64,000 bases of DNA from Centroscyllium fabricii (taxonomy: Eukaryota): NCBI GenBank assembly GCA_051313645.2, contig JBNRSN020000031.1, forward strand, positions 13,826,001 through 13,890,000, given 5' to 3'. Position numbers and translations under genes: made by a program. The notes under the pieces were generated by a model. That model saw nothing but the letters and a program-made list of their open reading frames with translations, was not told the origin of the DNA and ran no database searches. How positions within the stretch are numbered: the first letter of the stretch is position 1; each line of letters starts with the position of its first letter. Of this stretch, positions 4,042 to 58,555 are shown piece after piece.

Positions 4042-4295
4042 GTTCTTATGTTTGTATGAAAGGTTATAGCTATGAAACAAGGCTCAGAAACATAAAGCTT
4101 TTAGAAAAGAGAAGGTTAAGCGGGTTTAATAAAAGCTTTCAGAATTAGTAAATAGGAACAGAGGGGTAGAAATTTGTCTTGGGCGCTGGCGCAAAACGGG
4201 CAGTATCGGATTGGCTGGCCATTATATGCAGAGTCTGATATTCATATCCAATTCGATATCACCCGTATTGCGCCATCGAGTGTCAGGGTCTGTCA

Positions 4296-29591: not shown

Positions 29592-29729
29592 CAGTCCGAA
29601 ACCCCACCGCGGCCCACCGCGTGTGAATCACGGGTGCCGCCATCACCCGCGGACCCAGCCTTGCACAAGGGCCCCAGCGCGCACACCACACTTGCCTCTA
29701 CGGCCCCGAACCCGTCTCTTATTTTATCA

Positions 29730-32700: not shown

Positions 32701-32859
32701 GAGGTACCTCTTCCACCGGTGGAGTCCCTGTTCAGGTCGGAAGCTCCGTCGGCGCCTTTTCCGATTGAAACTGCTCCCGCCTATTCGCGAGAGCCGCCAC
32801 TGCCTCGCAGGCCTGTTCGGACTGTTCGACCTCCTCAAAGACTGATAACACAGTGCTGA
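29730..32859 (+). pseudogene. pol: Gypsy pol (protease-RT-RNase H-integrase) with a PLE insertion and one stop
   Basis: PR LFDTGS. RT SPW, LKSAYHQ, PFG, YLDN. RH SDASD, EKEAQAI, TDQRS, DALSR. IN H...H...CPVC, VDFKGP, HSDRG, GNGQVER. Stop at 30805-30807 and insertion at 30059-30269. Confidence 0.92.
30059..30269. mobile_element. Penelope-like inverted pLTR insertion carrying minimal hammerhead ribozyme motifs
   Basis: Perfect ~93-bp inverted arms spanning 30086-30272. Motif CAC-CTGAGGA-A-GGAGC-AGC-GCTCC-GAAA-GCTT-GTG. 12-bp duplication TCCTCTCATGGT (30047-30058, 30270-30281). Homologous to the PLE end at 36107-36233. Confidence 0.8.
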
Positions 32860-33355
32860 TATTCGCCCCACGGGACTTGTTTTTGAGGAAGGGGTGAATA
32901 TGATGAATCATTTGGTGTGGTTCACACTGTGCTATTATTGTATATAATTTATGTTAATAAATCTCTACCTTTCTGTAAGGACCTGGACCTGGACCGGCTG
33001 ACCCCGCCTCTGAGTATGGGTATAAAGGAGAATGCTCCGCCCACCTGGCTCTCATTCCGGGCGGACTCATCGCAGACCAGGTTCAGTTCTTTGTGAATAA
33101 AAGCCTTCAATTACTTTTCACCAACGACTGGCGTGATTGATTTGCGCATCAGGTATAAAGAAGTGTTATTGTTAAGGTTCCGTTACTGTTATCACACATA
33201 TAAAAGTATTTATATTCACCTCTTTCTGATCATGCCCATTTTTGTCTGCTACTTTGGAAGTGTCTTTGTGAGTTGGAGTGAATGGTGAGACATAATGCAA
33301 CCTCCAGCAATGGGGGTCAGTGTGAGAGGAATGGCTTGGTCATTGTTGGGATGTT

Positions 33356-35675: not shown

Positions 35676-36233
35676 GTCCAACCAGGATGTACCATTGTCT
35701 GCCCCCAACACAAAATCATTGAGAAGAGGCTGATAGCCAAGTTCCGCACCCATGAGCATGACCTCAACCATGATATTGGCTTCATGTCGCGCTACATGTG
35801 ACCCCGCCTGACGTAGAGTCATCCAGACTCGAGTCATCTTTGGTTTGTTCTTACTACGCTGATGCGGCTGCGATTTCCAGTAAGAAAAATCCTTTTTTTT
35901 TTAAATCATTCTGTGGGTTTTCACACAGACACCAGACTGTAACATCTGACCCTTTGTGACTGCACCTCATTTATCTCAGGCTGACTGATATGTTAGAGCA
36001 CCTTTGATTGCTTTGATGTCCCTCTGCTGAGGTGTGATGTTGAACAGTTGGAGAGACTACATTGTTCTCTCCCTCTATATATATGCTGTGTTTAAATGAA
36101 TCTCTTCACTTCACCTGATGAAGGAGCTGCACACCGAAAGCTTGTGATTTCAATTAATACTGTTGGACTATAACCTGGTGTTGTGTGACTTCTTACAATT
36201 GTCCACCCCAGTCCAACACCGGCACCTCCACAT
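35676..36233 (+). mobile_element. Penelope-like element 3' end (GIY-YIG C-terminus plus pLTR with hammerhead motif)
   Basis: Peptide EKRLIAKFRTHEHDLNHDIGFMSRYM*. Motif TCAC-CTGATGA-AGGAGCTGCACACC-GAAA-GCTT-GTGA at 36111-36147. Confidence 0.75.
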
Positions 36234-39200
36234 CATGCCCAAAGATTCAGACTGTCAGGAACCTTTAACCATCTGTTTCAATAAGGTTATTGATTCAGTG
36301 TCAACAACCATTCCATCTCAATAGCCTGAATGCTGTTAATAATACAGCTTCTCCATTGTTAGGTTTTTAGATTTCCAAATCCAGTTTGTAATGTTTTAAT
36401 AAGGCCAGAATTATTTCATAGAATGGTGTATTTTTCTGAATAGGTATATGGCTTATTCCTTCACAAGTGCATACCTATGCTATGCAGATTGGACGCTGAG
36501 GTCCTCCCCCTTTCAGTTCACCTGGCCAGGAAATTCCACCCTCCGCATGGCCTTTGGCATTCATTCAGTGGGTTGAAAGAAAAACAGGTCACATTCTAAC
36601 ATTGTACAGCCTGCCGTACTTGTTGAAACAAACACAAGCAAGATACCAAAGTGTTAGGAATCATCAAGGACACCAGATACTTAACCATGATTGCGCTACA
36701 TAGAATTACATCGAATGTACAGCACAGAAACTGGCCATTCGGCCCAACTGGCCCATGCCAGTGTTTATGCTCTACACGAGACTCCCCCCACCCCTCTTCA
36801 TCTAACCCCATCACCGTAACCTTGGAGGTGTTACTTAAAACAAGTCAAATAATTTGAAAACCTCAAGAGATCTTTCTGGTTTCTGCGTTCTCAGTTTCAA
36901 TTAAAAAAAAAGATGCTTCTCAAAACTTCTACAGAAACATCTCAGGCCCATTTTTTTGAATTATTGCAGTGAGTATGGTTATGTTGCTTGCAAATCTTAA
37001 CCATAATATGGCATTTCATTCTATTGGGCTGGATTATACAACCACCTGTTTTGGAAGGATTCGCTCTTCAGAACATTCCGGATTAATTAAATAAACATTT
37101 GCTTAAGTAAGACACCTGCCAACAATGATCAGCACGATTCACCGGAGAGGATAAGCAACTTGGGAGAACAACGAGTGGTCCCTGGGTAACCATGAAAACA
37201 TGTTCCATCTCAAAGAATCATCATCTTGATAGGCCGCACTGGGGGAGTCGGAAAGCAAATTGAAGGACAGAAGAAAAAGAATTCCATTTCTGAATGCAAT
37301 GCAAATGTCTGGTGTAAATTTACTTCTAAGTGCACAGCAAATATAGATTAATTTATGCATGAACACATCTGCTGAAATCACAGAAATTCATAAATGTTCT
37401 ACCTCAATACAATTCCATTCGCCCCATGCTCTCTGGAGATGGATAAATTAAAGCCTGGTTTCCAGTGTCATTATATATTCGGTGGAATTGTTTTTACTCA
37501 TTTGTCTGGTTTGAAAACTAATTTGTTTCGGGAGAATCAGGATTCACATTGAATAGCTGCGACTGAACCACAGCTGGACATCGGTACCATGTCATGTTAT
37601 CTCAATACTTTAGGGTAAATAAATGAAAACTGTATGTGCATAGTGAGAGAGAGGAAGAAAGAGCGAGTAGCCACAGAAGCAATGTATAAAGCATGTTGAA
37701 ACCTCTGGCTGCATGCCAAATGGATTTTAAATAAATTTGCAATACATATGGGTTCAAATAAAGGGTCCTCAATTCTTCAGAACAATTTATGAGATTGAAA
37801 ACTGCTAAGCGAATGAAGGAGGCATCGAGCCATGCCTACAATAACAAGTGGTCCAACCATGATTATTTATATCAAGTCAAATGTAAAATGTCAGAATTCT
37901 CCGATGAACCTGCCGTGGAGATGAGCCAAGTTATTATATTGCAGTAATATTTGACTGCAACTTTGCTGGTTCATGAGTAGGAACAGCAGTTACCCACTGA
38001 GCCTTACAAACATAGGAAAAAAGACAAGCAGGACTAGGCCATTCAGCCCTTCGAGCCTGCTCTGCCATTCAATATGATTATGGATGATCCTCTATCCCAA
38101 TTCCATATTCTTCACCATTTTGTTAGCTGTGCCAGCTCTATCTGCTTAATCCCAATTCCCTCTCTTTTATTCCCATCCAAAGTAGTCCTGGATTCATGTT
38201 TCATGGTCAATTCAGGTTAAATTGGAAATATCTGACCAAGACCAGACATGATGGACTAAATGGCCTGTGTTGTACCGTTCTATGATAATAAATCAATTAT
38301 GCTTAAATTAATATGCTCAAATCCTTTAGTCATTTAACCTGGGATGTGGGTGTCACTAGTTTTATTCTTATTGGGCCGGATTTTCCGATGGCCCCCGACG
38401 CAAAACGCGTGAGTACGGAACGGGTACTCACGTGTGCGGCCCTCAGAAGTGCTGGTTCTGTGCGTGCACCGAGCATGCGCACAGAACCAGTACTTCCGAT
38501 GCCGGCTCTGGGGGGTCAGGAGCCGGAGCACGTTGGCCTGCGTACCAGGAGGTGCGCAGTGCACTTCCGATTTTTTTGGAAGTTTTTTATCGGGGTAAGT
38601 ATCGGAAAAGTTACGACTGAAAATATCAACCGTAACGACCCATTTTTAGCAGGTAAGTCTCTATTTTATTCAATTTATGTATTTCTTTCACAGGTTTTTT
38701 ATTTTTAAATAATTTAAACAAAGGTAAGTAGTTTTTTAGCCCAGTAAAAAACATAAAATATTTTTTCAAAATTTTTATTTTTTGTTTAAAATAGGTAATT
38801 TATGTTAGTGATAGTAATGTTAAAAAATGTGGGTTTTTAAAAAAATTATTTTATTGTTTAGTGTGTTTTTGGGGCTCTTGCATTTCATAACTTTGACAGA
38901 TCGCTCTGTCAAAGTTACGAATGGAGGATCCTTGGCAGTGATTGGTCCCCGCGGACCACGTGGTCCCGCACGGATCTTGCCCACTAACTCCGACGCTGAG
39001 TTGCCTCAGCACAGCGCGTGGAGCCTGGAGCAGTACTTGGAATCGGGATTTCAAATCCCAGAAGAGGACAACGGCAGGTGCGCTCCGTAAGTGTAGGTTG
39101 GAGGCTTGCACCCGCGGCAAGCCTCCGAGGCTAATTTTTGGGCCATTGTTTTTCATAGTGGTTTGGTACAACTGAGTGGCTTGCTATGCCATTGCTAAGT

Positions 39201-39977: not shown

Positions 39978-41239
39978 TACTTTCTTGGTGAAGCTTTTTA
40001 TCCCAGATTTAATTAATTGAATTAAAATTCCCCAACTGCCATGGTGGGATTTGAACTCACATTTAACATGGATCATTAATCCAGGCCTAACTAGGATTAC
40101 TAATTCAGTAACATAGCCACTATACTGTGGCAGTTCCACATCGGGCTATAAATGTCTGTACATAGAAACTATATGTAAAATCCCCTTTAACTTACATGTT
40201 TCCCCTCCCCATTAAGAGAGAGGGAAACGGACCTCACGCGACCCAACGTGGTGATGTCATCACGTGTTTCGTGGGCTTTCTTGTTTAGAGTGTTTTGGAG
40301 TTCGATCAGTAAAGACCTGTTTTTGAGTTAATCCTTTGAGTTGGCTGAATTATTTGTTAGGAGATCATAGTCTCCTACATTGGTGACCCCTAGTTAGTAA
40401 ACGTTTTTGCCGACCTACGCAGCATCATGGCAAAAAGCGCTACGGCCTTGAAACTGCCTTCCTTTTGAGAGCATCAAGCGCCCGCATGGTTTGCCCATGC
40501 CAAGGCTCAGTTCTCCCTATGAAAGGTTGAGGAAGACGGCGACAAATACCTCCACATTGTGTCGGCCCTCGAAAGCTCCACCGCTGCTGAAGTCATCGAC
40601 CTTCTGGAAAACCCTTCAGAAACTGGCAAGTACGAAGCGGTTAAAGACAGACTCCGACAGGTTTTAAGCCTCTCCAAGGAAGAGAGAGCATCCAGGCTCC
40701 TCACACTACCGGGCCTTGGAGACTCAACCCCTGCCCAGTTAATGAGCCGAATGCTCACGATTCTTGGGTCTGAGCCACAATGTTTTCTTTTTCGGGCATT
40801 ATTCTTAAGCCAGCACCCCCAGCAAGTCAAAGCTGCCCTCGCCGGTTTCCCAATTACAGACTGCGTCAAGCTCGCAGCCGCGGCAGATAAAATCTTCTCC
40901 GTAACCCAGCTCAGCTGCGCAGCAATGAGGTTCCCCTCCCCCATGGAGCACACCCCGCCTCGCCAGACGGTGTGGTAACCGTAATTACCAGTGTATATAT
41001 ATGGATGTGTTCACGTTCAACTCTGTACATCGTGTGCAAGGCCAGGTCAGCCACACCTCTAACTCCTCCCCTCAGGTGGGAGCATATAGGTGAGGCCCGC
41101 CCTGCCCCGCTCATTCTCGCCTTGAACTCAACAGGAGACTAGCTCCATTGTAAGTGAATAAAAGCCTGTAGTTTGGGTAACTACTCGTCTTTCGTGTTTG
41201 ATTGACGATACGTCAATTTTATTCACTTAAATTTAAAAC

Positions 41240-42580
41240 ATGGAGAGTAACGCAGTGAAACCGGATCGCCTCGATATCAATCCCCAGGCACCCGCTGCTG
41301 CTAACAACTTCGAACACTGGTTCGGCCTGGTCGAGGCCTACATGAAGGCCGTAAAGGCTACAAGTGATGAGGACAAACTCCAGGTACTCTCATCACAGAT
41401 CAGCGGCTGGGTGTATTCCTTTAGCCGCGGCCTCAAGACGTACGGGGAAGCGATGAAGAAACTAAAGGACTGCTACATGCGCCCGGCCCACTTGGTCTAT
41501 GCCAGGCATGTTCTGGCGACCAGACGACAACGACTCGGTGAGTCCAATGAACAGTTCTTACTAGCGCTTCAAGCCCTTGTACGGGCCTGCGACTGCCAGC
41601 CAAGGACGGCGGAGGAAGAAGCGAACCTCCTAATACGGGATGCATATGTGGCTGGACTCAGGTCCAGCCAGGCCCGCCAGCGGCTGCTGGAGCAGAACAC
41701 ACTGCCGCTCGAGGCCGCAATAACACTTTCAAATGCGGTGGACAGAGCACTCCGAAAGCTGGAGGCGTACGGAGACCACAGCCCACACGATACCCCTGAC
41801 ACATGGGCGACACCGCGACAGGCCGAGACTCCCACGATGGCAGCGGCGGCTGCGAAGACACCGGCGGGGCACAGATGTTACTTCTGCGGCCAAGGGAAGC
41901 ACCCGCGGGCGCAGTGCCCCGCGAGGAACGCGACCTGCGAGCGGTGCGCGAAGAAGGGGCACTACGCGAAGGTGTGCAAGTCCAGCCCAGCCTCCATCTC
42001 CAGAGCCAACAGCGCGGCCTGCGAAAACAGCGATGCCACTCCATGGCCCAAGGTACGGTGTTGCAGCGCGACCCAGCAGCGGTCAGCCGGGGATAAATCG
42101 CGGGCGCCTCAGTCCCCCTTAACTGTACAGCGGAGGCCGGGCGCGCGCGCAGCACAGGCACCGCCACTCCAAAAGCGACAGCAGCCAGCCAGATGCGACC
42201 CCCTGGCGCCGCCATCTTATCCTCAGCGGTCGGCCATGTGCGACCCCCCGGCGCCGCCATCTTGTCCACCGCGGTCCGCCATGTGTGAACCACGGGCGCC
42301 GCCATCTTATCCTCAACGGTTGGCCATGTGCGACCCCCCGGCGCCACCATCTTGTCCACCGCGGTCGGCCGCGTGCGAACCATGGGCGCCGCCATCTTAT
42401 CCACCGCGGTCGGCCGCGTGCGAACCACGGGCGCCGCCATCTTGTCCACAGCAGCCAGACTCGAGCGCATTGCCAGCGCCGCCATCTTACGAGCGGCCAT
42501 CTTGCCATCTGCCCCGGCCGGGGCCCCAGCTAGCGGAGGGCCCCCACTCACACACATACACCTTGGCCTCAGCCACTGTC
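41240..42580 (+). CDS. gag: Gypsy gag of element B, open up to the nested insertion
   Basis: ATG at 41240. Knuckles CYFCGQGKHPRAQC and CERCAKKGHYAKVC, and 7 copies of a 15-aa APPS[YC] repeat. Confidence 0.88.
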
Positions 42581-43024
42581 TGTGGTAATCATATTACCAG
42601 TGTATATAGTTGGATTGTAACTGTACTGCACCGCATGACCCATTTATATAGTTGCTTGGTGCATTGGATGTATTGGATGTAGAACACGGTTGTAAGGCCG
42701 AGGCCCCCACGATGGCTGCGACGGCCACTAAAGATAAACGCTGCTACTTCCAGGACTGCACCCAAGAGCGAAATGCTCAGCCAGGACAGCGACCTGCGAG
42801 AAATGTGCTAAGAAGGGACACTACGCTAAAGCCTGCAGATCAGCTCCAGCAGCGCCCAACTCAAGGTACAACAGTGCAGCCTGTGAGAGCACCGACAGAC
42901 ACCAGGTAAGCTGCAATAGCAGCGCGATCCAGCGACGGTACGGGGGTAGACAACAAGCGCCCCCATCCCCCACCCCGATGCGGCAAAGGCCGGCCAAGCG
43001 CGACCCCCCAATGCGGCCGGCTGC

Positions 43025-46000
43025 GTGCGAATCACGGGCACCGCCAACCCGACCACCGCGGCCCACTGCATGCGAATCACGGGCACCGCCAACCCGATCA
43101 CCGCGGTTCACTGCGTGCGAATCACGGGCGCCGCCAGCGCGTTCACAGGGCCCCACCATGTGCGTCCCCTCGGAGACGCCATTTTGTATCCAGGGCCCCT
43201 CCATGTGCGAGCCGGGGCGACGCCATCTTGTATCCAGGGCCCCACCATGTGCGAGCCAGGGGCGCCGCCATCTTGTACACAGGGCCCCACCATGTGCGAG
43301 CCAGGGGCGCCGCCATCTTGTGCACAGCCCCGATCAGCAGGGGCTGCGGCAACCAGAATCAGAGTTAGCCAGGGCAGGCCCCATACCCTGTCTAACTCAA
43401 TAATGCCGATTAATATTAATGACTACACTGTCGACTGCCTTTTCGACACAGGCAGCACTGAGCGTTTCGTTCACCCCGATACAGTGCGGCGCTGCGGACT
43501 GCAGATCCTGCCCACCAACTACCAAGTCTCCCGAGCTTCACAGTCCCACACCGCGGACGTCACCGGCTACTGCTCCGTCACGCTCACCATCAAGGGGCGC
43601 ATGTACCGTAATTTTAAATTGTATACCCTCCAGCAGTTGTGTGTCCCAGCCTTACTAGGTTTGGACTTCCAGTGCCACTTCAGGAGCGTGACAATGGAGT
43701 TCGGCGGGACCTTGCCCCCCCTCACCGTCAGTAGCCGGGACAACCCCTTCCCAAAGCGGAGCCCGGCCTGCGGCCTCTCCACCCTGAGAATCGACCCCCC
43801 CTCGCTGTTCGCCAACCTCGATCCGAAGTGCAAACCCATTGCTACTAAGAGTCGGCGGTACAGTGAGGGGGATCGCACGTTTATCAGGTCGGAGGTCGGG
43901 CGGATGCTGAAGGAGGGGATAATTGAAGCCAGCACCAGCCCCTGGCGCGCCCAAGTTGTAGTGGTGAAGTCTGGCAAAAAACAGTGGCTGGTTATCGATT
44001 ACAGCCAGACTATCAACCGCTACACCGGGCTCGACGCCTACCCCCTTCCCCGCATCTCGGAAATTGTCAATCAGATCGCCCAGTACAAGGTGTTCTCCAC
44101 GATCGACCTTAAATCGGCGTATCATCAGCTCCCGATTCGGAAAGCCGACTGCCCCTACACCGCCTTCGAGGCGAACGGTCGGCTCTACCACTTCCTCCGG
44201 GTCCCCTTTGGCGTGACCAACGGAGTGTCAGTGTTCCAACGAGAGATGGACCATATGGTTGACCAAAACGACTTGCAGGCCACTTTCCCTTACCTGGACA
44301 ACGTGACCATCTGCGGCCACAACCAGAAGGACCACGATGCCAATCTGGCCAAATTCCTCGCCACGGCGGACAAGCTGGACCTTACGTATAACAAAGACAA
44401 ATGTGTCTTTAATACAGACCGGCTCGCCATCCTCGGATACGTGGTGGAGAACGGGGTCCTCGGCCCCGACCCACAGCGTATGCGACCCCTGCAAGAACTG
44501 CCCCTACCTCACAACCCCAAAACCTTGAGGAGATGCCTAGGATTTTTCTCCTATTATGCACAATGGGTCCCACAGTTCGCAGATAAGGCTAGACCACTCC
44601 TCAAGGCTGCCGTCTTCCCCCTTTCTGTAGAAGCCCAAACGGCATTCGCAAGGATAAAGGAAGATATTATCAAGGCGACCATGCTCGCTGTTGATGAATC
44701 CATCCCTTTCCAGGTGGAGAGTGACGATTCGGACTTTGCCCTTGCTGCCACCCTGAATCAGGCAGGCAGGCCCGTAGCGTTTTTCTCCCGCACCCTACAG
44801 GGACCCAAAACTCGCCACTCAGCAGTGGAAAAGGAGGCCCAGGCCATCGTGGAGGCCGTGCGCTACTGGCGTCATTACCTGGCCGGTAAGCGTTTTACCC
44901 TGCTCACCGACCAACGGTCGGTGGCGTTTATGTTTAACAATAAACAACGGGGTAAAATCAAGAATGATAAGATCCTGCGGTGGCGGATCGAACTCTCGAC
45001 TTACGAGTATGACATTCTTTACCGACCAGGTAAACTCAATGAACCCCCGGACGCACTGTCCAGGGGAACGTGCGCCAGTGCCCAGCTCGACCGGCTGAAG
45101 GACCTCCACGACCGCCTTTGCCACCCGGGTGTCACCAGACTTGCCCACTTCGTCAAGTCCCGTAGCCTCCACTACTCCATCACGGAGATCAAGGCTATGA
45201 CCCGAGAGTGCCCTGTCTGTGACGAGTGCAAACCCCACTTTTTCCGGCCAGACACGGCGCACCTCATTAAGGCCACCCGCCCCTTTGAACGTCTCAGCAT
45301 GGACTTCAAAGGCCCCCTCCCGTCCACCGACCGCAACTCATACTTCCTCACGGTAGTGGATGAGTTCTCCCACTTCCCCTTCGCCTTCCCCTGCCCAGAC
45401 ATGACGAGCGCAACGGTGATCAAACACTTCACCACGCTGTTCGCCATTTTCGGTCTCCCCAGCTACATCCATAGCGACCGGGGGTCATCGTTCATGAGCG
45501 ATGAACTGCGCCAGTTTCTGCTCCAGAGAGGGGTTGCCACGAGCAGAACGACCAGTTATAACCCCCGGGGGAACGGCCAGGTAGAAAGGGAGAATGGGAT
45601 CATTTGGAAGGCGGTCACCCTGGCTCTCAAGTCCAGAGGCCTTCCAGTGTCCCATTGGCAGGCAGTCCTCCCAGACGCGCTGCACTCTATACGCTCTCTG
45701 TTATGTACTGCCACTAACGCCACCCCGCACGATCTGATTTTCTCTTTCAACAGGAGGTCGACTTCGGGGACAGCTCTTCCTTCATGGCTGACGACTCCGG
45801 GGCCGGTTTTGCTTAGAAGGCATGTCCGGAGCCACAAGACAGACCCCCTGGTGGACAAGGTACAGCTCCTACATGCAAACCCGCACTACGTCTTCGTGCA
45901 GTTCCCGGACGGGCGTGAGGACACCGTGTCCATCAGGGACCTGGCTCCCGCAGGAAGCACCACCGCAGAGCCCCCGGCCGGCCAGCAGGCCGACCAACCA

Positions 46001-46246
46001 CCAAACACACGATGGCCCCTGAGTTTCCCCGAACACCAGCAGTGGCCTGCACTGAACTACGACCCGGACGGCGGGGACCAGCCGAGTCCACCGCCACCTG
46101 AAGCCACAGCACCGGCAGATGCGGGCGATTCGAACCAGGAGGCACCACCACCAACACCGGAACGCCGGCGGTCCTCCAGGCAGACACGACCGCCGGACAG
46201 ACTTATCATGAACTGTTCGACCCATTTACCCCCCCTCCGGACTTAA
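43025..46246 (+). CDS. pol: Gypsy pol copy 1 (element E), uninterrupted PR-RT-RH-IN
   Basis: 1073-aa frame with LFDTGS, YLDN, RNase H and HHCC/DDE integrase motifs. The RNase H SDASD motif is changed to SDDSD. Confidence 0.92.
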   Translation: MRITGTANPTTAAHCMRITGTANPITAVHCVRITGAASAFTGPHHVRPLGDAILYPGPLHVRAGATPSCIQGPTMCEPGAPPSCTQGPTMCEPGAPPSCAQPRSAGAAATRIRVSQGRPHTLSNSIMPININDYTVDCLFDTGSTERFVHPDTVRRCGLQILPTNYQVSRASQSHTADVTGYCSVTLTIKGRMYRNFKLYTLQQLCVPALLGLDFQCHFRSVTMEFGGTLPPLTVSSRDNPFPKRSPACGLSTLRIDPPSLFANLDPKCKPIATKSRRYSEGDRTFIRSEVGRMLKEGIIEASTSPWRAQVVVVKSGKKQWLVIDYSQTINRYTGLDAYPLPRISEIVNQIAQYKVFSTIDLKSAYHQLPIRKADCPYTAFEANGRLYHFLRVPFGVTNGVSVFQREMDHMVDQNDLQATFPYLDNVTICGHNQKDHDANLAKFLATADKLDLTYNKDKCVFNTDRLAILGYVVENGVLGPDPQRMRPLQELPLPHNPKTLRRCLGFFSYYAQWVPQFADKARPLLKAAVFPLSVEAQTAFARIKEDIIKATMLAVDESIPFQVESDDSDFALAATLNQAGRPVAFFSRTLQGPKTRHSAVEKEAQAIVEAVRYWRHYLAGKRFTLLTDQRSVAFMFNNKQRGKIKNDKILRWRIELSTYEYDILYRPGKLNEPPDALSRGTCASAQLDRLKDLHDRLCHPGVTRLAHFVKSRSLHYSITEIKAMTRECPVCDECKPHFFRPDTAHLIKATRPFERLSMDFKGPLPSTDRNSYFLTVVDEFSHFPFAFPCPDMTSATVIKHFTTLFAIFGLPSYIHSDRGSSFMSDELRQFLLQRGVATSRTTSYNPRGNGQVERENGIIWKAVTLALKSRGLPVSHWQAVLPDALHSIRSLLCTATNATPHDLIFSFNRRSTSGTALPSWLTTPGPVLLRRHVRSHKTDPLVDKVQLLHANPHYVFVQFPDGREDTVSIRDLAPAGSTTAEPPAGQQADQPPNTRWPLSFPEHQQWPALNYDPDGGDQPSPPPPEATAPADAGDSNQEAPPPTPERRRSSRQTRPPDRLIMNCSTHLPPLRT

Positions 46247-46661
46247 AATTTTCAAGAAGGGGTGAATGTGGTAACCCTTTTGTGTCTGCATTACCACTGT
46301 ATCATTATGGCTAATAATGGGCTGTGTAGATGTTAGGCACTGCCCTGTATACTGTGACACTGTTGGGAGCCAGGTCAGCCACACCTCTAACTCCTCCCCC
46401 AGATGAGGCCCCGTTATAGGTGAGATCTGACCGAGGCTCCTCATTCCTGTACTGAAGTTCGTTCCGGAGGGTAGCTCCGTTCTTAGCAATTAAAAGCCTT
46501 TAGTTTCGGTAACTACTCGTCGACTCTTTTAATCGAAGGTATTGACGATACGTCAGAGACTAGCTCCATCTTTAAGTTATTAAAAGCCTGTAGTTAAGGT
46601 CACTACTCGTCTTTTGCCTTATTGACGATACGTCACTGTCGATCAGGCTAGGCCGCACACC

Positions 46662-49579
46662 TTGTCCAATTCCATGATGGGGATTAAGGTGGACGGGAAC
46701 GTCATGAATTGCCTGTTCGACACCGGTAGCATAGAGAGCTTTATACACCCCGACACAGTGCGGCGCTACGCACTGCGGACCCAGCCCACACACTACCAAA
46801 TCTCCCTTGCCTCAAAGTCCCACACGGCGGACGTCACCGGCTACTGCAGCGTCATGATCAGGGACTGCATTTACCGCAACTTTAAGTTGTACATCCTCCA
46901 GCGGTTGTGCGCACCAGTCTTACTGGTACTGGATTTCCAGTGCCACCTGAAGAGCGTAACGGTGGATTTCGGTGGAACCCTGGCCCCCCTCACCGTCAGT
47001 AGCCGGGACAATCCCTACTTAAAGCGGAGCTCGACTTGCGGCCTGTCCACATTAAAAGTCGTCACCCCTCACTGTTCGCCAATCTCGACCCCAAATGCAA
47101 GCCCATTGCTACTAAAAGTCGGCGTTACAGTGCAGTGGACCGGGCGTTTATCAGGTCGGAAGTCGAGTGTATGCTGCAAGAAGGGATCATTGATGCCAGA
47201 ACCAGCCCTTGGCGGGCCCAGGTCGTAGTGGTTAAGACGGGTGAGAAACTGCGCATGGTCATTGACTATAGCCAGACGATTAACCGCTACACCGGGCTCG
47301 ACGCCTACCCCCTCCCCCGCATCTCGGATATGGTAAACCAGATCGCCCAGTACAAGGTCTTTTCCACAATCGACCTTAAGTCGGCGTATCACCAACTCCC
47401 CATCCGGAAATCCGACCGCCAGTACACCGCTTTCGAGGCGAACGGCCGGCTCTACCACTTCCTCCGGGTCCCCATCGGCGTGATCAACGGAGTGTCGGTG
47501 TTCCAGAGGGAGATGGACCGTATAGTTGACCAGAACGGGTTGCAGACCACCTTCCCCTACCTGGACAACGTGACCATCTGCGGCCACGACCAGCACGACC
47601 ACGATGCCAACCTCGCCAAATTCCTGCACACGGCGAAACGGCTGGATCTCACGTACAATAAAGACAAGTGTGTCTTTAGTACGGATCGGCTCGCTATCCT
47701 CGGATATGTGGTGGAAAACGGGGTCCTCGGCCACGACCCACAGCGTATGCGCCCCTTGCAAGAGCTTCCCTTACCTCACAACCCCAAAGCCCTGAGGAGA
47801 TGTCTAGGGTTCTTTTCTTATTACGCGCAATGGGTCCCCCAGTACACGAATAAGGCCAGACCTCTCCTCAAGGCCGATGTCTTCCCCCTCTCGGAAGAAG
47901 CCCAAACGGCATTCGCCCGGATTAAGGAAGACATCATCAAGGCGACCATGCACACCGTTGATGAGCCCATCCCTTTCCAGATGGAGAGCGACGCTTCGGA
48001 CTTTGCCCTTGCTGCCACCCTGAATCAGGCAGGCAGGCCCATAGCGTTTTTCTCCCGCACCCTACAGGGACCCGAAACTCGCCACTCAGCAGTGGAAAAG
48101 GAGGCCCAGGCCATCGTGGAGGCCGTGCGCTACTGGCGTCATTACCTGGCCGGTAAGTGTTTTACCCTGCTCACCGACCAACGGTCGGTGGCGTTTATGT
48201 TTAACAATAAACAACGGGGTAAAATCAAGAATGATAAGATCCTGCGGTGGCGGATCGAACGCTCGACTTACGAGTATGACATTCTTTACCGACCAGGTAA
48301 ACTCAATGAACCCCCGGACGCACTGTCCAGGGGAACGTGCGCCAGTGCCCAGCTCGACCGGCTAAAGGACCTCCACGACCGCCTTTGCCACCCGGGTGTC
48401 ACCAGACTCGCCCACTTCATCAAGTCCCGTAGCCTCCACTACTCCAGCATGGAGATCAAGGCTATGACCCGAGAGTGCCCTGTCTGTGCCGAGTGCAAAC
48501 CCCACTTTTTCCGGCCAGACACGGCGCACCTCATTAAGGCCACCCGCCCCTTTGAACGTCTCAGCATGGACTTCAAAGGCCCCCTCCCATCCACCGACCG
48601 CAACTCATACTTCCTCACGGTAGTGGATGAGTTCTCCCGCTTCCCCTTCGCCTTCCCCTGCCCAGACATGACGAGCGCAACGGTGATCAAACACTTCACC
48701 ACGCTGTTCGCCATTTTCGGTCTCCCCAGCTACATCCATAGCGACCGGGGGTCATCGTTCATGAGCGATGAACTGCGCCAGTTTCTGCTCCAGAGAGGGG
48801 TTGCCACGAGCAGAACGACCAGTTATAACCCCCGGGGGAACGGCCAGGTAGAAAGGGAGAATGGGATCATTTGGAAGGCGGTCACCCTGGCTCTCAAGTC
48901 CAGAGGCCTTCCAGTGTCCCATTGGCAGGCAGTCCTCCCAGACGCGCTGCACTCTATACGCTCTCTATTATGTACTGCCACTAACGCCACCCCGCACGAT
49001 CTGATTTTCTCTTTCAACAGGAGGTCGACTTCGGGTACAGCTCTTCCTCCATGGCTGACGACTCCGGGGCCGGTTTTGCTTAGAAGGCATGTCCGGAGCC
49101 ACAAGACAGACCCCCTGGTGGACAAGGTACAGCTCCTACACGCAAACCCGCACTACGCCTTCGTGCAGTTCCCGGACGGGCGTGAGGACACCGTGTCCAT
49201 CAGGGACCTGGCTCCCGCAGGAAGCACCACCGCAGAGGCCCCGGCCGGCCAGCAGGCCGACCAACCACCAGACACACGATGGCCCCTGAGTTTCCCCGAA
49301 CACCAGCAGTGGCCTGCACTGAACTACGACCCGGATGGCGGGGACCAGCCGAGTCCACCGCCACCTGAAGCCACAGCACCGGCAGATGCGGGCGATTCGA
49401 ACCAGGAGGCACCACCACCAACACCGGAACGCCGGCGGTCCTCCAGGCAGACACGACCGCCGGACAGACTTATCATGAACTGTTCGACCCATTCACCCCC
49501 ACCGGACTTAAAATTTTCAAGAAGGGGTGAATGTGGTAACCCTTTTGTGTCTGCATTACCACTGTATCATTATGGCTAA
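46662..49579 (+). pseudogene. pol: Gypsy pol copy 2 (chimera: 5' B-type, 3' E-type), frameshifted between PR and RT
   Basis: PR ORF 46662-47228 and RT-RH-IN ORF 47036-49579 lie in different frames. The 3' half is near-identical to copy 1. Confidence 0.9.
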
Positions 49580-49926
49580 TAATGGGCTATGCAGATGTTG
49601 GGCACAGCCCTGTATACTGTGACACTGTTGGGAGCCAGGTCAGTCACACCTCTAACTCCTCCCCCAGATGAGGCCCCGTTATAGGTGAGATCTGACCGAG
49701 GCTCCTCATTCCTGTACTGAAGTTCGTTCCGGAGGGTAGCTCCGTTCTTAGCAATTAAAAGCCTTTAGTTTCGGTAACTACTCGTCGACTCTTTTAATCG
49801 AAGGTATTGACGATACGTCAGAGACTAGCTCCATCTTTAAGTTATTAAAAGCCTGTAGTTAAGGTCACTACTCGTCTTTTGCCTTATTGACGATACGTCA
49901 CTGTCGATCAGGCTAGGCCGCACACC

Positions 49927-52772
49927 TTGTCCAATTCCATGATGGGGATTAAGGTGGACGGGAACGTCACGAATTGCCTGTTCGACACCGGTAGCATAGA
50001 GAGCTTTATACACCCCGACACAGTGCGGCGCTACGCACTGCGGACCCAGCCCACGCACTACCAAATCTCCCTTGCCTCAAAGTCCCACACGGCGGACGTC
50101 ACCGGCTACTGCAGCGTCACGATCAGGGACTGCATTTACCGCAACTTTAAGTTGTACATCCTCCAGCGGTTGTGCGCCCCAGTCTTACTGGTACTGGATT
50201 TCCAGTGCCACCTGAAGAGCGTGACGATGGATTTCGGTGGAACCCTGGCCCCCCTCACCGTCAGTAGCCGGGACAATCCCTACTTAAAGCGGAGCTCGAC
50301 TTGCGGCCTGTCCACATTAAAAGTCGACACCCCTCACTGTTCGCCAATCTTGACCCCAAATGCAAGCCCATTGCTACTAAAAGTCGGCGTTACAATGCAG
50401 GGGACCGGGCGTTTATCAGGTCGGAAGTCGAGTGTATGCTGCAAGAAGGGATCATTGATGCCAGAACCAGCCCTTGGCGGGCCCAGGTCGTAGTGGTTAA
50501 GACGGGTGAGAAACTGCGCATGGTCATTGACTATAGCCAGACGATTAACCGCTACACCGGGCTCGACGCCTACCCCCTCCCCCGCATCTCGGATATGGTA
50601 AACCAGATCGCCCAGTACAAGGTCTTTTCCACAATCGACCTTAAGTCGGCGTATCACCAACTCCCCATCCGGAAATCCGACCGCCAGTACACCGCTTTCG
50701 AGGCGAACGGCCGGCTCTACCACTTCCTCCGGGTCCCCATCGGCGTGATCAACGGAGTGTCGGTGTTCCAGAGGGAGATGGACCGTATGGTTGACCAGAA
50801 CGGGTTGCAGGCCACCTTCCCCTACCTGGACAACGTGACCATCTGCGGCCACGACCAGCACGACCACGATGCCAACCTCGCCAAATTCCTGCACACGGCG
50901 AAACGGCTGGATCTCACGTACAATAAAGACAAGTGTGTCTTTAGTACGGATCGGCTCGCTATCCTCGGATACGTGGTGGAAAACGGGGTCCTCGGCCACG
51001 ACCCACAGCGTATGCGCCCCTTGCAAGAGCTTCCCTTACCTCACAACCCCAAAACCCTGAGGAGATGTCTAGGGTTCTTTTCTTATTACGCGCAATGGGT
51101 CCCCCAGTACGCGAATAAGGCCAGACCTCTCCTCAAGGCCGATGTCTTCCCCCTCTCGGGTGAAGCCCAAATGGCATTCGCCAGGATTAAGGAAGACATC
51201 ATCAAGGCGACCATGCACACCGTTGATGAGTCCATCCCTTTCCAGGTGGAGAGTGATGCTTCGGACTTCGCCCTTGCTGTCACCCTGAACCAGGCAGGCA
51301 GGCCCGTAGCGTTTTTCTCCCGGACCCTACAGGGACCCGAAACTCGCCACTCAGCAGTGGAAAAGGAGGCCCAGGCCATCGTGGAGGCAGTGCGCTACTG
51401 GCGTCATTACCTGGCCGGTAAGCGTTTTACCCTGCTCACCGACCAACGGTCGGTGGCGTTTATGTTTAATAATAAACAACGGGATAAAATCAAGAATGAT
51501 AAGATCCTGCGCTGGCGGATCGAGCTCTCGAATTACGAGTACGACATTCTTTACCGTCCAGGCAAACTCAATGAACCCCCAGACACACTGTCCAGGGGAA
51601 CGTGCGCCAGCGCCCAGCTTGACCGGCTGAAGACCCTCCACGATAGCCTCTGCCACCCGGGTGTCACCAGACTCGCCCATTTCGTTAAGTCCCGTAGACT
51701 TCCCTACTCCATCACGGAGATCAAGGCTATGACCAGAGAGTGCCCTGTCTGCACCGAGTGCAAACCCCAATTTTACAGGCCAGACACGGCGCACATCATC
51801 AAGGCCACCCGCCCCTTTGAACGTCTGAGCGTGGACTTCAAAGGCCCCCTCCCCTCCACTGACCGCAGCTCGTACTTCCTCACGGTCGTGGACGAGTTCT
51901 CCCGCTTCCCCTTCGCCTTCCCCTGCCCAGACATGACGAGTGCAATGGTGATAAGACACTTCACCACGCTGTTCACCATTTTCGGTCTCCCCAGCTACAT
52001 CCATAGCGACCAGGGGTCGTCGTTCATGAGCGACGAACTGCATCAGTTTCTGCTTCAGAAAGGGGTTGCCTCAAGCAGAACGACCAGTTACAACCCCCGG
52101 GGGAACGGCCAGGTAGAAAGGGAGAATGGGATCATCTGGAAGGCGGTCAACCTGGCCCTGAAGTCCAGAGGCCTTCCAGTGTCCCGTTGGCAGGCAGTCC
52201 TCCCAGACATGCTCCACTCCATCCACTCTCTGCTGTGTACGGCTACAAACGCTACACCTCACGACCTATTATTTTCCTTCCCCAGGAAGTCGACTTCGGG
52301 GACAGCACTCCCACCGTGGCTCACGACGCCAGGGCCAGTCTTAATTAGGAAACATGTCCGCGGCCATAAGACCGACCCCCTTGTGGAAAAGGTGCAGCTG
52401 CTGCATGCCAACCCGCAGTATGCCTACGTGCAATTCCCGGACGGGCGCGAGGACACAGTTTCCATCAGAGACCTAGAGCCCACCGGGAGCACTAGAGCAG
52501 AACCCCCGGTCGACCCTCAGCCCAACCAGCCACCATCTACCGAACACTGGCCTACATATCAACCAACATCCACCAATTACTGGCCTACCTACACACACAC
52601 ACCGGGGCCCTCGACGCTATCGGCCGACAACCCAGGGCCGGACGCCATGCTGCAGGCACTGTTGCCGGAGGACCCGACCCCGTCACCACAACTGGCACCA
52701 GCGCCGCTACCGGAAACCCGGCGGTCATCACGACAGACACGACCACCCGAAAGACTGATAGAAAATTGCTGA
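49927..52772 (+). pseudogene. pol: Gypsy pol copy 3 (5' B-type, distinct 3' tail followed by a D-type LTR), same frameshift
   Basis: ORFs 49927-50493 and 50301-52772. Confidence 0.9.
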
Positions 52773-53165
52773 TACGGACATATAATTTTTTTTGCACTGT
52801 GCTGTTCCATTCACCCCGCCGGACTCATTTTCAAAGAAGGGGTGAATATGGTAATCATATTACCAGTGTATATAGTTGGATTGTAACTGTACTGCTCCAC
52901 ATGACCCATGTATATAGTTGCTTGGTGCATTGGATGTATTGGATGTAGAACACGGTTGTAAGGCCAGGTCAGCCACACCTCTAACTCCTCCCCTCAGGTG
53001 GGAGCCTTATAGGTGAGGTCTGCCCTGCCCCCAGTCATTCTGTGCCTGATGTACAACTGGAGACTAGCTCCATCTTTAAGTTATTAAAAGCCTGTAGTTA
53101 AGGTCACTACTCGTCTTTTGCCTTATTGACGATACGTCACTGTCGATCAGGCTAGGCCGCACACC

Positions 53166-55936
53166 TTGTCCAATTCCATGATGGGGATTAAGGTGGACGG
53201 GAACGTCACGAACTGCCTGTTCGACACCGGTGGCATAGAGAGCTTTATACACCCCGACACAGTGCGGCGCTATGCACTGCGGACCCAGCCCACGCACTAC
53301 CAAATCTCCCTTGCCTCAAAGTCCCACACGGCGGACGTCACCGGCTACTGCAGCGTCACGATCAGGGACTGCATTTACCGCAACTTTAAGTTGTACATCC
53401 TCCAACAGTTGTGCGCACCAGTCTTACTGGGACTGGATTTCCAATGCCACCTGAAGTGCGTGACGATGGATTTCGGTGGAACCCTGGCCCCCCTCACCGT
53501 CAGTAGCCGGGACAATCCCTACTTAAAGCGATGCTCGACTTGCGGCCTGTCCACATTAAAAGTCAACACCCCTCACTGTTCGCCAATCTCGACCCCAAAT
53601 GCAAGCCCATTGCTACTAAAAGTCGGCGTTACAGTGCAGGGGACCGGGCGTTTATCAGGTCGGAAGTCGAGCGTATGCTGCAAGAAGGGATCATTGATGC
53701 CAGAACCAGCCCTTGGCGGGCCCAGGTCGTAGTGGTTAAGACGGGCGAGAAACTGCGCATGGTCATTGACTATAGCCAGACGATTAACCGCTACACCGGG
53801 CTCGACGCCTACCCCCTCCCCCGCATCTCGGATATGGTAAACCAGATCGCCCAGTACAAGGTCTTTTCCACAATCGACCTTAAGTCGGCGTATCACCAAC
53901 TCCCCATCCGGAAATCCGACCGCCAGTACACCGCTTTCGAGGCGAACGGCCGGCTCTACCACTTCCTCCGGGTCCCCTTCGGCATGATCAACGGAGTGTC
54001 GGTGTTCCAGAGAGAGATGGACTGTATGGTTGACCAGAACGGGTTGCAGGCCACCTTCCCCTACCTGGACAACGTGACCATCTGCGGCCACGACCAGCAC
54101 GACCACGATGCCAACCTCGCCAAATTCCTGCACACGGCGAAACGGCTGGATCTCACGTACAATAAAGACAAGTGTGTCTTTAGTATGGATCAGCTCGCTA
54201 TCCTCGGATATGTGGTGGAAAACGGGGTCCCCGGCCCCGACCCACAGCGTATGCGCCCTTACCTCACAACCCCAAAGCCCTGAGGAGATGTCTAGGGTTC
54301 TTTTCTTATTACGCGCAATGGGTCCCCCAGTACGCGAATCAGGCCAGACCTCTCCTCAAGGCCGATGTCTTCCCCCTCTCGGAAGAAGCCCAAACGGCAT
54401 TCGCCCGGATTAAGGAAGACATCATCAAGGCGACCATGCACACCGTTGAAGAGTCCATCCCTTTCCAGGTGGAGAGTGACGCTTCGGACTTCGCCCTTGC
54501 CATCACCCTGAACCAGGCAGGCAGTCCCGTAGCGTATTTCTCCCGGACCCTACAGGGACCCGAAACTCACCACTCAGCAGTGGAAAAGGATGCCCAGGCC
54601 ATCGTGGAGGCAGTACGCTACTGGCGTCATTACCTGGCCGGTAAGCGTTTTACCCTGCTCACCGACCAAATGGTCGGTGGCGTTTATGTTTAATAATAAA
54701 CAACGGGATAAAATCAAGAATGATAAGATCCTGCGGTGGCGGAACGAGCTCTCGACTTACGAGTACGACATTCTTTACCGTCCAGGCAAATTCAATGAAC
54801 CCCCGGATGCACTGTCCAGGGGAACATGCGCCAGCGCCCAGCTTGACCGGCTGAAGGCCCTCCACGACTGGCTCTGCCACCCGGGTGTCACCAGACTCGC
54901 CCACTTCGTCAAATCCCGTAGCCTCCCCTACTCCATCACGGAGATAAAGGCTATGACCAAAGAGTGCCCTGTCTGTGCCGAGTGCAATCCCTAATTTTAC
55001 AGGCCAGACACGGCGCATATCATCAAGGCCACCCGCCCCTTTGAACGCCTGAGCGTGGACTTCAAAGGCCCCCTCCCCTCCACTGACCGCAACTCGTATT
55101 TCCTCACGGTCACAGACGAGTTCTCACGCTTCCCCTTCATCTTCCCCTGCCCAGACATGACGAGCGCAACGGTGATCAAACTCTTCACCACGCTGTTCGC
55201 CATTTTCGGTCTCCCCAGCTACATCCATAGCGACCGGGGGTCGTCGTTCATGAGCGACGAACTGCGTCAGTTTCTGCTTCAGAAAGGGGTTGCCTCAAGC
55301 AGAACGACCAGTTACAACCCCCGGGGGAACGGCCAGGTAGAAAGGGAGAACGGGACCATCTGGAAGGCGGTCAACCTGGGCCTGAAGTCCAGAGGCCTTC
55401 CAGTTTCCCGTTGGCAGGAGGTCCTCCCAGACGCGCTCCATGCCATCCGCTCTCTATTGTGTACCGCTACTAATTCAACACCTCACGACCTGTTATTTTC
55501 CTTCCCCAGGAAGTCGACTTCGGTGACAGCACTCCCGCTGTGGCTCACAGCGCAGGGGCCGGTGTTGCTTAGGAAACACATCCGCGGCCACAAGACCGAC
55601 CCCCTGGTGGAACGGGTGCACCTGCTCCACGCCAACCCACAGTATGCCTACGTGACATTCCCAGACGGGCGCGAGGACACAGTCTCGATCAGGGCAGAAC
55701 CCCCGGTCGAGCCTCAGCCCGACCAGCCACCACCCACCGAATACTGGCCCCCATACATACACACACCGGGGCCCTCAACAACACCGATCAACCACCCGGG
55801 ATCGGACACCGCACCGCCGGCACCATTGGCGGAGAGCCCGATCCCGGCCCTGCAACCGGCACCACCACTGTTACCGGCACCCCGGCGGTCCTCGAGGCAG
55901 ACGCGACCGCCGGAGAGACTAATAGCACAGTGCTGA
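53166..55936 (+). pseudogene. pol: Gypsy pol copy 4 (element B proper), multiply disrupted
   Basis: Fragments 53166-53732, 53531-54283, 54436-54693, 54590-54994 and 55055-55936, followed by a PPT and the B-type LTR. Confidence 0.9.
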
Positions 55937-56949
55937 TTGCGTCTAACGGACATATCAAAATTTTATTTATTTTTTCTCTCTCTTCTCTCGTTCACCCCGC
56001 CGGACTTGTGTTTAAAGAAGGGGTGAATGTGGTAACCGTAATTACCAGTGTATATATATGGATGTGTTGACCTTCAACTCTGTACGTTGTGTGTATATAT
56101 ATGGATGTGTTCACCTTCAACTCTGTACATCGTGTGCAAGGCCTGGTCAGCCACACCTCTAACTCCTCCCCTCAGGTGGGAGCATATAGTTGAGGGCCGC
56201 CCTGCCCCCGCTCATTCTCGCCTTTAACTCGACAGGAGACTAGCTCCATTGTAAGTGAATAAAAGCCTGTAGTTTGGGTAACTACTCGTCTTCCGTGTTT
56301 GATTGACGATACGTCAGACGGCAGGCCTCTGCTATTATCATGCCCATTTTGGTGCGACGGCCTACCGCTGCCTCCCGCCCTGCAATTTCACCACAAAAAA
56401 AGGAAGCCCTGCCCGACCCACCGATTCCTCGCCCCCAGCGGATTTCATCTGATTGACACCCCGCCGCCACGATGGCCGTCGGTTCAGCATGGAAACTCCT
56501 CTACATTACTGATTCATTTTCCGGGCGGCGATTCCTCTGTGACACAGGTGCGCAGTGCAGTATTCTTCCAGCTTCCACCCTCGATGTCCAAGCAGGTCAG
56601 AGCGGACGTGCCTGCTCTTCAACCTGCCAGCCTTCCAGACACTCCTCCTCACCTGCCATCCGGGTAGTACAGCCGCTCTGGTCGTTTGATCAAACCACCT
56701 GAACGATTGACTTTCTCGGTTAAAGAGGATTCTGGGCGGGACGCATGTGGCAGTTCCACATCGGGGTATAAATGTCTGTATATAGAAACTGTATGTAAAA
56801 TCCTCTTTAACTTACATGCTTCCCCTCCCCTTTAAGAGAGAGAGAAAACAGACCTCACGTGATCCAACGTGGTGACATCATCACGCGTTTTGCGGGCTTC
56901 CTTGTTTAAAGTTTTTGGGAGTTCGATCGGTGAAGACCTGTTTTTGTGC

Positions 56950-57512
56950 TGAGAGGGAATGGGGTTCAGTGTTGGGAGGGAGTGGGGTTCAGTGTTCGGA
57001 CGGAGTGGGGTTCAGTGTTCGGACGGAGTGGGGTTCAGTGTTGGGAGGGAGTGGGTTCAGTGTTGGGAGGGAATGGGAATCAGTTTTGGAAGGGAATGGG
57101 GTTAAGTGTTCAGATGGAGTGGGGTTCAGTGTTGGGAGAGAGTGGGGTTCAGTGTTGGGAGGGAGTGAGATTCAGTGTTGGGACTGAGTGGGGTCCAGTG
57201 TTGGGAGGGAGTGGGGTTCAGTGTTGGGAGGGAGTGAGATTCAGTGTTGGGACTGAGTGGGGTTCAGTGTTGGGAGGGAGTGGGGTTCAGTGCTGGGAGG
57301 GAGTGGGGTTCAATGCTGGGACGGAGGGGGGTTCAGTGTTCGGACAGAGTGGGGTTCAGTGTTGGCAGGGAGTGGGGTTCAGTGTTGGGAGGGAGTGGGG
57401 TTCAGTGTTGGGACGGAGTGGGGTTCGGTGTTGGGACAGGGTGGGGTTCAGTGTTCGGACGGGGTGGGGTTCAGTGTTGGGAGGGAGTGGGGTTCAGTGC
57501 TGGGAGGGAGGG
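56950..57512. repeat. G-rich minisatellite, ~23-bp unit GAGTGGGGTTCAGTGTTGGGAGG
   Basis: Roughly two dozen tandem variant copies are visible. Confidence 0.92.
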
Positions 57513-58555
57513 GGTTTGGTTCAGGAAGGCAGTGGGGGCAGTTCTGAGAGGGAATTGAGGTTCGGTTCTGGCAGATCCAACTTCAGTCGGGAGTGCCGGC
57601 AGATTGACTTTTGTTTAAAGGATGGTTTGAAGGCTATTTTGGTTAAAGCCTATTTATGGATATTTATGGATGTGAATTGTAGATCATTGACTGCAATGGA
57701 ACTGAATATCAGGCGTTGCTTATAACGGGCAGCCGATCCGATGCCGCATGCTTTGTGCCACCGCCCGAGGCAAATTTCAATCCCTCTGTCTCACATGCTC
57801 ACAAGCCCGGTGAAACACCTGAAATTAAATTATTTAATTCCCCAGTACTAACGTCATTCACCCCATTGAGCACAAAGTTCGAAATAAAGTATTATTTTTT
57901 AAATCAGCCACATCTCGAAGTTGCATTCACATTTCATTTTCAATACATGCTGAGGGAACATGAGATCAGTCTTAGCCCATTCAACAACTCAAGCATGTTC
58001 CACCATTCAATTAGGTCATGGGCTAATATGTATCTTAACTCCATCTACCTTCCTTGGTTCTGTCACCCTTCATTCCCTTGGCTAAAAAGGGTGGGGATGG
58101 ACGGCCAATTGCGGGAGTGTGGGGCCGGGGCGGTTGAGGCGGGCGGACGTGTTGAAAGGGTATTTCCTAATCCTAGCCCTTTTGGGGTTAACTGGGATCA
58201 GGCTTATTTCCCAGGCATTCACTTTCAACTAAAGTCTGAGGTAGCCGAATCCTAAAGATGTGTAATTGGGTCTAAAGGCTATCTCTCCCCAACGGAAAGG
58301 AACAACACGAGAATGTTACCGTCCTCCAGATAGCGCTTTTAATAAGTTTAGCTAGACTGTAACCTTCTGGATATTATAAGGGTTCAGAGACCTCCTTCAG
58401 AATTATGTAACTCTTCACCAAAGAGTGTACAGAGATTAAATTAGCGAGTTATTGATACAGAAGACTTATGTGAAACAATTCTAAAAATATATAGAGATTT
58501 ATTAAAAGAACCGACATGCAATTTACAGTTGGTGAATCAGTCATTCGCAACGTTA

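Follow-up and report, generated by a model that had tools for sequence, protein, structure and literature searches.

The window, by which we mean the whole 64,000-nt stretch of DNA analysed here, contains LTR retrotransposons that are inserted into one another and, within them, four consecutive related pol genes. This raises the question of how a nest of insertions became a tandem array, and of whether the pol genes in this array combine parts of different subfamilies.

Architecture of the nest

The nest has four levels: element A holds B, B holds D, and an LTR of D holds E. All parts of the nest lie on the forward strand. B, D and E are Ty3/Gypsy LTR retrotransposons, with the Pfam domain order protease, reverse transcriptase, RNase H and integrase (PR-RT-RH-IN) in pol, and with Ty3 Gag-Pol as the best match of pol in the PDB. 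They have TG...CA LTRs and a polypurine tract, and most of their full-length copies are flanked by 5-bp target-site duplications (TSDs). The nearest named proteins come from sharks and rays, which makes a cartilaginous fish the likely host. Pfam gave no match to a chromodomain. The reverse transcriptase motif of all four pol units is YLDN, not YxDD.

Element A begins with a 5′ LTR (40126–40379), next to which lies a TGG-type primer-binding site, presumably of the tRNA-Trp type. Its gag fragment (Pfam DUF7041; 40523–40970) is split by B. The initial annotation called A CsRn1-like, a putative label for which this gag domain and the TGG-type site are the remaining features, as no reverse transcriptase of A is left. 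The rest of its internal sequence and its 3′ LTR (56746–56946) occupy 56322–56946 on the far side of the nest, where the LTR is truncated by a tandem repeat array (56946–57566). This repeat array has a period of ~23 bp and begins exactly where the A 3′ LTR ends.

The initial annotation had placed B inside the relic A and D at the gag-pol junction of B, and both placements were confirmed. B is flanked by GACGG at 40966–40970 and 56317–56321. Its 5′ LTR (TG...CA; 40971–41215) and its gag (41240–42575) extend as far as the insertion of D, whose TSD, CTGTC, is found at 42576–42580 and recurs behind each D-LTR end (46635, 49900 and 53139). We consider CTGTC a true TSD because plain B copies carry it once at their gag-pol junction: exactly one CTGTC was present in five of nine copies and a one-letter variant in two, while the search anchor was missing in the other two. 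The first 119 nt of the D LTR (42581–42699) end at a deletion join: D-LTR nucleotide 119 runs directly into mid-gag sequence of E, with a microhomology of 4 nt, GGCC (42696–42699), at the join. The gag of D itself and the 5′ part of its pol are missing from the array.

Unit 1 (42700–46266; assigned by diagnostic sites and Pfam) consists of the 3′ part of E gag, E pol (PR-RT-RH-IN) and a polypurine tract at 46254–46266, and is pure E. It is followed by the E 3′ LTR (46267–46555) and by GAGAC with the 3′ end of the D LTR (46556–46635). The same arrangement of an E LTR, GAGAC and the final 75 nt of the D LTR recurs at the second E LTR (49532–49820), in agreement with the proposal that E lies inside the D LTR. 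GAGAC is the putative TSD of E, since the E 5′ LTR and the left TSD copy have been lost.

The next three units all start with CTGTC and a B-type 5′ half of pol, and differ in their tails (E, D and B, respectively). Unit 2 (46636–49900) continues with the 3′ half of E pol, the E LTR copy at 49532–49820 and the D LTR end (49821–49900). Unit 3 (49901–53139) continues with the integrase half of D and a whole D LTR (52847–53139) without E. Unit 4 (53140–56316) contains the original B pol, with frame breaks and one stop, and the B 3′ LTR (56028–56316), and is pure B. The three units are 3265, 3239 and 3177 nt long and the self-comparison offsets are ~3.24–3.27 kb, which bears out the reported period of ~3.25 kb; LTR starts, LTR ends and polypurine tracts were likewise found where the initial annotation had put them. 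The hybrid pol genes have no gag or 5′ LTR of their own.

Elsewhere in the window, element F (27836–33151) is a related full-length element (~77% in pol). It carries a 200-bp inverted-repeat insertion at ~30070–30272 that matches 36111–36237. A LINE at 4239–7265 has a 1008-aa endonuclease-RT reading frame without stops.

Subfamily identity and breakpoints of the pol units

Twenty genome copies each of B, D and E were fetched, from which 9 B, 9 D and 10 E copies were obtained as full-length references. The diagnostic-site alignment contained 9 B, 5 D and 10 E copies, as four of the nine D copies were dropped by a length filter. In comparison with these references, unit 1 had the E state at 422 of 429 diagnostic sites, and unit 4 had the B state at 394 of 397. 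Unit 2 showed 189 B sites and one E site up to 47965, followed by 215 E sites from 47989 onwards. Unit 3 showed 85 B sites up to 51620, followed by 100 D sites and one B site from 51645 onwards. Units 2 and 3 thus have one sharp breakpoint each. The diagnostic sites place the B-to-E crossover interval (47965–47989) at the start of the RNase H region, and the B-to-D crossover interval (51620–51645) in the region of the RNase H/integrase boundary.

The gap between the flanking diagnostic sites is only 24–25 nt at these breakpoints, where the subfamilies are ~6–11% apart. Such similarity is low for classical homologous recombination. Moreover, the breakpoint of unit 3 lies outside the most similar stretch, with a divergence of 10.7% versus 4.1% nearby. 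Across the family as a whole, B, D and E are only 4–7% apart in the RNase H region of pol, versus 10–25% elsewhere in pol; this low divergence may reflect either constraint or an old exchange between the subfamilies. The suggested shuffling of reverse transcriptase and integrase between subfamilies is real in the sequence of units 2 and 3, but the hybrids have left no dispersed copies.

Origin of the array

We conclude with considerable confidence that two unequal exchanges, each pairing one pol gene with a related one, duplicated the inner part of the nest where it stood and gave the B/D and B/E hybrids. The TSDs, the subfamily identity of each part and the single breakpoint in each hybrid can be read directly from the DNA; the order of the steps we infer. 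B would first have inserted into A, and D would then have inserted on the same strand at the gag-pol junction of B. Mispairing of B pol with D pol on the sister chromatid or homologue would have duplicated the segment from the 5′ part of B pol through the 3′ part of D pol to the D LTR, creating unit 3. E would subsequently have inserted into the upstream D LTR, which may have been the 3′ LTR of D or a solo LTR, and mispairing of the B half of unit 3 with E pol would have produced unit 2. At no fixed time in this series, a microhomology deletion would have removed the DNA from D-LTR nucleotide 119 to the middle of E gag. The D half of unit 3 is presumed to come from the local D copy, whose internal part is now deleted. 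Genuine crossovers, and switches of template while DNA was being repaired or replicated, would leave the same sequence, so that the exchanges may have been either.

Divergences among the units were used to examine this order. Units 2–4 have in common 20 alignment columns that are unlike most B copies, 16 of which occur in none of the nine B copies. Their B halves also have a 6-nt deletion and a frame break between protease and reverse transcriptase that are absent from other B copies. Because units 2–4 have these private changes in common, their B halves descend from the B element of the array locus. Eight further changes are common to units 2 and 3, two to units 2 and 4, and none to units 3 and 4, which yields the tree ((2,3),4).

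In unit 2, the B half is 1.42% (19 of 1338 positions) away from unit 3 and the E half 1.44% (21 of 1460) away from unit 1 (Fisher p = 1.0). This equal age of the two halves is predicted by a single exchange between the B half of unit 3 and E pol. For the first exchange, the B halves of units 2 and 3 differ from unit 4 at 33 of 1323 and 34 of 1322 positions (2.5%), although the difference between 2.5% and 1.4% is borderline (p = 0.050). E arrived after the first exchange, as the D LTR of unit 3 is without E, and probably shortly before the second exchange, as units 1 and 2 have only three identical private changes in common. LTR divergences were 21/200 (10.5%) for A, 7/245 (2.9%) plus one indel for B, 4/119 (3.4%) for D and 5/289 between the E copies. 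These values are compatible with the proposed order, with wide intervals that overlap for B and D.

The array could have been produced by the assembly instead, if haplotypes or similar repeats had been mis-joined into extra units. No long read or contig spans the array, and the searched runs (Logan) consist of short contigs only. However, the units are 1.4–2.6% apart and form a clock-like tree, the two halves of unit 2 are of matching age, and mis-joined alleles would not create breakpoints between different subfamilies. A weak hint in the same direction comes from run X2, in which a 52-nt stretch crossing the E/D junction is matched exactly at a depth of 19.3, with 23 and 29 letters on its two sides, too few for the bridging rule of the search tool; this compares with depths of 7.6–11.7 in long low-depth pieces of run X1 from the same sample, which may be the assembly's own. 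We therefore consider an artefact very unlikely.

The initial annotation had offered unequal crossing-over or template switching as the source of the array. Of these, unequal exchange between the nested pol regions stands. Template switching by reverse transcriptase would have acted on co-packaged read-through RNAs, with the composite inserted as one cDNA. Copy-choice recombination yields breakpoints in homologous sequence, and the location of the breakpoints within homologous pol fits this process. Against it, no new TSD was found around any unit in the array, and the junction of D end, CTGTC and B pol gave three exact matches among 19 matches in the genome, all three within the array. Because this junction occurs only at the array locus, the hybrids did not transpose, and together with the lack of a new TSD this rules out a hybrid copy produced by reverse transcriptase and newly integrated. 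Furthermore, a fresh cDNA would carry identical LTRs, whereas the divergence of the outer B LTRs exceeds that of the youngest duplication (1.4%), so that these LTRs are no younger than the duplications. A single-cDNA origin thus appears extremely improbable. In place of it, the hybrid units show what unequal exchange leaves behind: a single breakpoint within a pair of homologous direct repeats, halves of equal age, no new TSD and restriction to one locus.

Nest-junction duplications comparable to the array were found at two other loci. Locus L272 (C822) is such an array on a smaller scale: the pol hot spot described below received an LTR, after which comes a tandem duplication of 1.58 kb that comprises the LTR and 3′ pol. 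At L277/L278 (C302), a 1.94-kb tandem duplication contains an opposite-strand solo LTR nested in an LTR.

Family abundance, self-targeting and insertion hot spots

The 7.2 Gb assembly contains 275,708 exact copies of a 14-nt LTR end, and the family and its relatives amount to roughly 1 Gb. In 40 random 9.9-kb regions the family covered 15.1% of the genome (bootstrap 8.8–22.5%). Since the family covers ~15% of the genome, formation of the nest needs no targeting; as a rough chance expectation, the 275,708 LTR ends would give some hundreds of same-strand three-deep nests.

Repeated same-strand insertion of relatives had been read as a possible sign that the family actively targets its own copies, thereby building the nest. 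We sampled 96 3′ junctions (29 B, 28 E and 39 D). Only eight of these insertions lay within family sequence, three on the same and five on the opposite strand, versus the background of 15.1%, which a host-age correction would lower. Hence, same-strand self-targeting of whole elements was not borne out.

Insertion into particular positions was studied by whole-genome pattern counts in 31-nt windows, expressed as junctions per 10,000 host sites. The rates were 4.8 for the LTR on the same strand, 7.5 for the LTR on the opposite strand, 9.2 for pol on the same strand and 0.9 for the adjacent pol window on the opposite strand. An unrelated control repeat, presumably a SINE, had a rate of 2.9 (1.4–5.4), based on 10 events. 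The mean across the four family windows is ~2x that of the control repeat, in favour of self-targeting, and the uneven rates imply that insertion use is very uneven by position.

The strongest hot spot is one 5-bp target in pol, equivalent to ~44946–44950 in the window (end of RNase H; loci L257–L272). In the 31-nt pol window, which has 147 same-orientation junctions in all, 45 of the 100 listed fell on this target, as did 46 of 83 in the opposite orientation (hand counts). Its rate is ~44-fold (24–91) that of the control repeat. Among 16 fetched loci, both TSD copies were present in 12, four had no left end in range, and the inserted LTR types differed. The site of E in the D LTR is warm: it is the top position of its LTR window, with 15 of 99 independent listed junctions (hand count), or ~8x the control rate. 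These hot spots would favour self-targeting, but the pol hot spot is used equally in both orientations, the adjacent pol window is cold (15 matches), and the site of D in B is used by no other insertion. Active same-strand targeting of the family's own copies is thus an improbable explanation of the nest. A narrower self-preference survives, in the form of nucleotide-level hot spots inside the family that are symmetric in orientation.

Given this symmetry, a property of the target DNA or of its chromatin is a better candidate cause of the pol hot spot than strand-specific homing or pairing with RNA. Of 60 junctions with the 8-mer of the pol hot spot, 43 lay in family context and 17 outside the family or in diverged sequence, as raw counts that take no account of the genome frequency of the 8-mer. 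The base profile of the 96 sampled target sites was weak and did not single out the pol hot spot.

At the GAGAC site, insertions with both TSD copies were found in L181, L182 and L184. Site-specific targeting at GAGAC was rejected for these loci, as the whole-genome counts show that many neighbouring positions are also used. We also rejected GAGAC as a transcription start with a D tail added by reverse transcriptase, because the three loci show ordinary TSD insertions.

Primer site

Each 5′ LTR is followed by one base and then by 12–14 nt that are complementary to an LTR segment around AATAAA or ATTAAA. In B, the primer-site position at 41217–41229, without the TGG of a tRNA type, is the perfect complement of 41151–41163, which overlaps AATAAA. 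The corresponding pair in F is 28024–28037 and 28088–28101, and further pairs were found at loci L061–L120. Following the 5′ LTRs of B, D and E there is no TGG-type tRNA primer-binding site, but this self-complementary site in its place; ARAGORN found no tRNA in the 64,000-nt window. Primer site and LTR segment co-vary, in about a dozen 12-mer types, not only between subfamilies (B, D, E, F and others) but also inside subfamily D.

A complement of at least 12 nt was present in 75 of 93 5′-type ends versus 5 of 268 other ends. The 5′-type filter favours T-rich starts, a bias offset by a swap control in which foreign primer-site types fitted in 232 of 7866 swaps. Folding predictions for the leaders of B and F contain a helix between primer site and LTR. 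The complementary stretch exceeds the at least 10 nt after the 5′ LTR that serve as the published criterion for predicted self-priming in the available text of PMC6317226. Co-variation of the primer site with the element's own poly(A)-signal region suggests that the family may be self-priming. Masking of the 5′ poly(A) signal may be an alternative or additional role of the helix.

Discussion

The array is a known process, in which nests are duplicated and LTR tandems arise by unequal exchange, seen here in a well-resolved case with exchanges inside pol between subfamilies. Our literature searches for arrays of this kind and for nests in sharks gave no direct match. Tandemly duplicated TE nests were described in Drosophila melanogaster (Bergman et al. 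2006, PMC1794594), and the available part of that paper likewise reports that elements inserted one after another and that the resulting nest was then duplicated in tandem, that one family can nest in itself, and that tertiary nests occur, if rarely. In contrast to the nests described there, the exchange points here lie inside the pol of different subfamilies, are mapped to 25 nt and are ordered in time. Tandem TEs are substrates for unequal exchange (McGurk and Barbash 2018, PMC5932611), and in the sections of this study at hand, as here, LTR-element tandems arise via ectopic recombination and expand via unequal exchange. Recombination in those sections is mainly between LTRs or after double insertion, whereas here it involved nested internal coding regions that are ~90–94% alike.

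Autoinsertions of plant LTR retrotransposons (Jedlicka et al. 2019, PMC6911290) resemble our data, according to the accessible portion of the paper, in that nesting rises with element density and prefers certain regions within host elements. Unlike that portion, we found no preference at the level of the family, only for individual nucleotides, of which one lies in a coding region. Human TEs have single-nucleotide nesting hot spots (Levy et al. 2010, PMC2836564), and the parts of this work available to us report that insertions into existing elements cluster at such hot spots, an example being a single nucleotide of Alu at which other Alu elements insert. The family studied here differs from what those parts describe in being integrase-driven and LTR-flanked, and in using both orientations alike.

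Complementarity between the primer-site position and part of the 5′ LTR of the same element is shared with Tf1, Tj1 and sushi in the available extracts of PMC4600332 and PMC6317226. In Tf1 and Tj1 the mRNA itself supplies the primer with its 5′ end (PMC4600332, same extract), whereas the segment here overlaps the poly(A) signal, 49–62 nt before the LTR end and ~40 nt past the predicted start site. PMC6238403, in its available text, names Cigr-1 without mention of a primer site. Our literature search on self-priming in the group of Gypsy elements around B, D, E and F found nothing specific; Repbase reports, which lay outside the search, may describe it. The name 'Selfy' has been applied to self-primed Gypsy elements, and a literature search for this name gave 0 matches.

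A joint reading of these results seems rather doubtful, if conceivable. A very abundant Gypsy family, with more than 275,000 LTR ends, would prime itself on its own poly(A)-signal region, such that one RNA helix serves as both primer and mask of the 5′ poly(A) signal. Within its pol, a single nucleotide would have evolved into a trap for integration that captures new copies in old ones, whichever way they are oriented, and the nests begun there would turn into tandem arrays and hybrid pol genes.

Taken separately, the primer-site types, about a dozen of which co-vary with the LTR, point to priming without a tRNA in elements outside the chromovirus group. The pol hot spot, symmetric in orientation and with independent insertions estimated at 100 at least, provides a natural assay of how integrase chooses its target. 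The array itself records chromosomal recombination between pol genes of subfamilies that are 6–11% apart at the exchange point, in events that can be ordered from the sequence alone. Such exchange is one route by which dense retrotransposon nests enlarge the genome and become tandem repeats.
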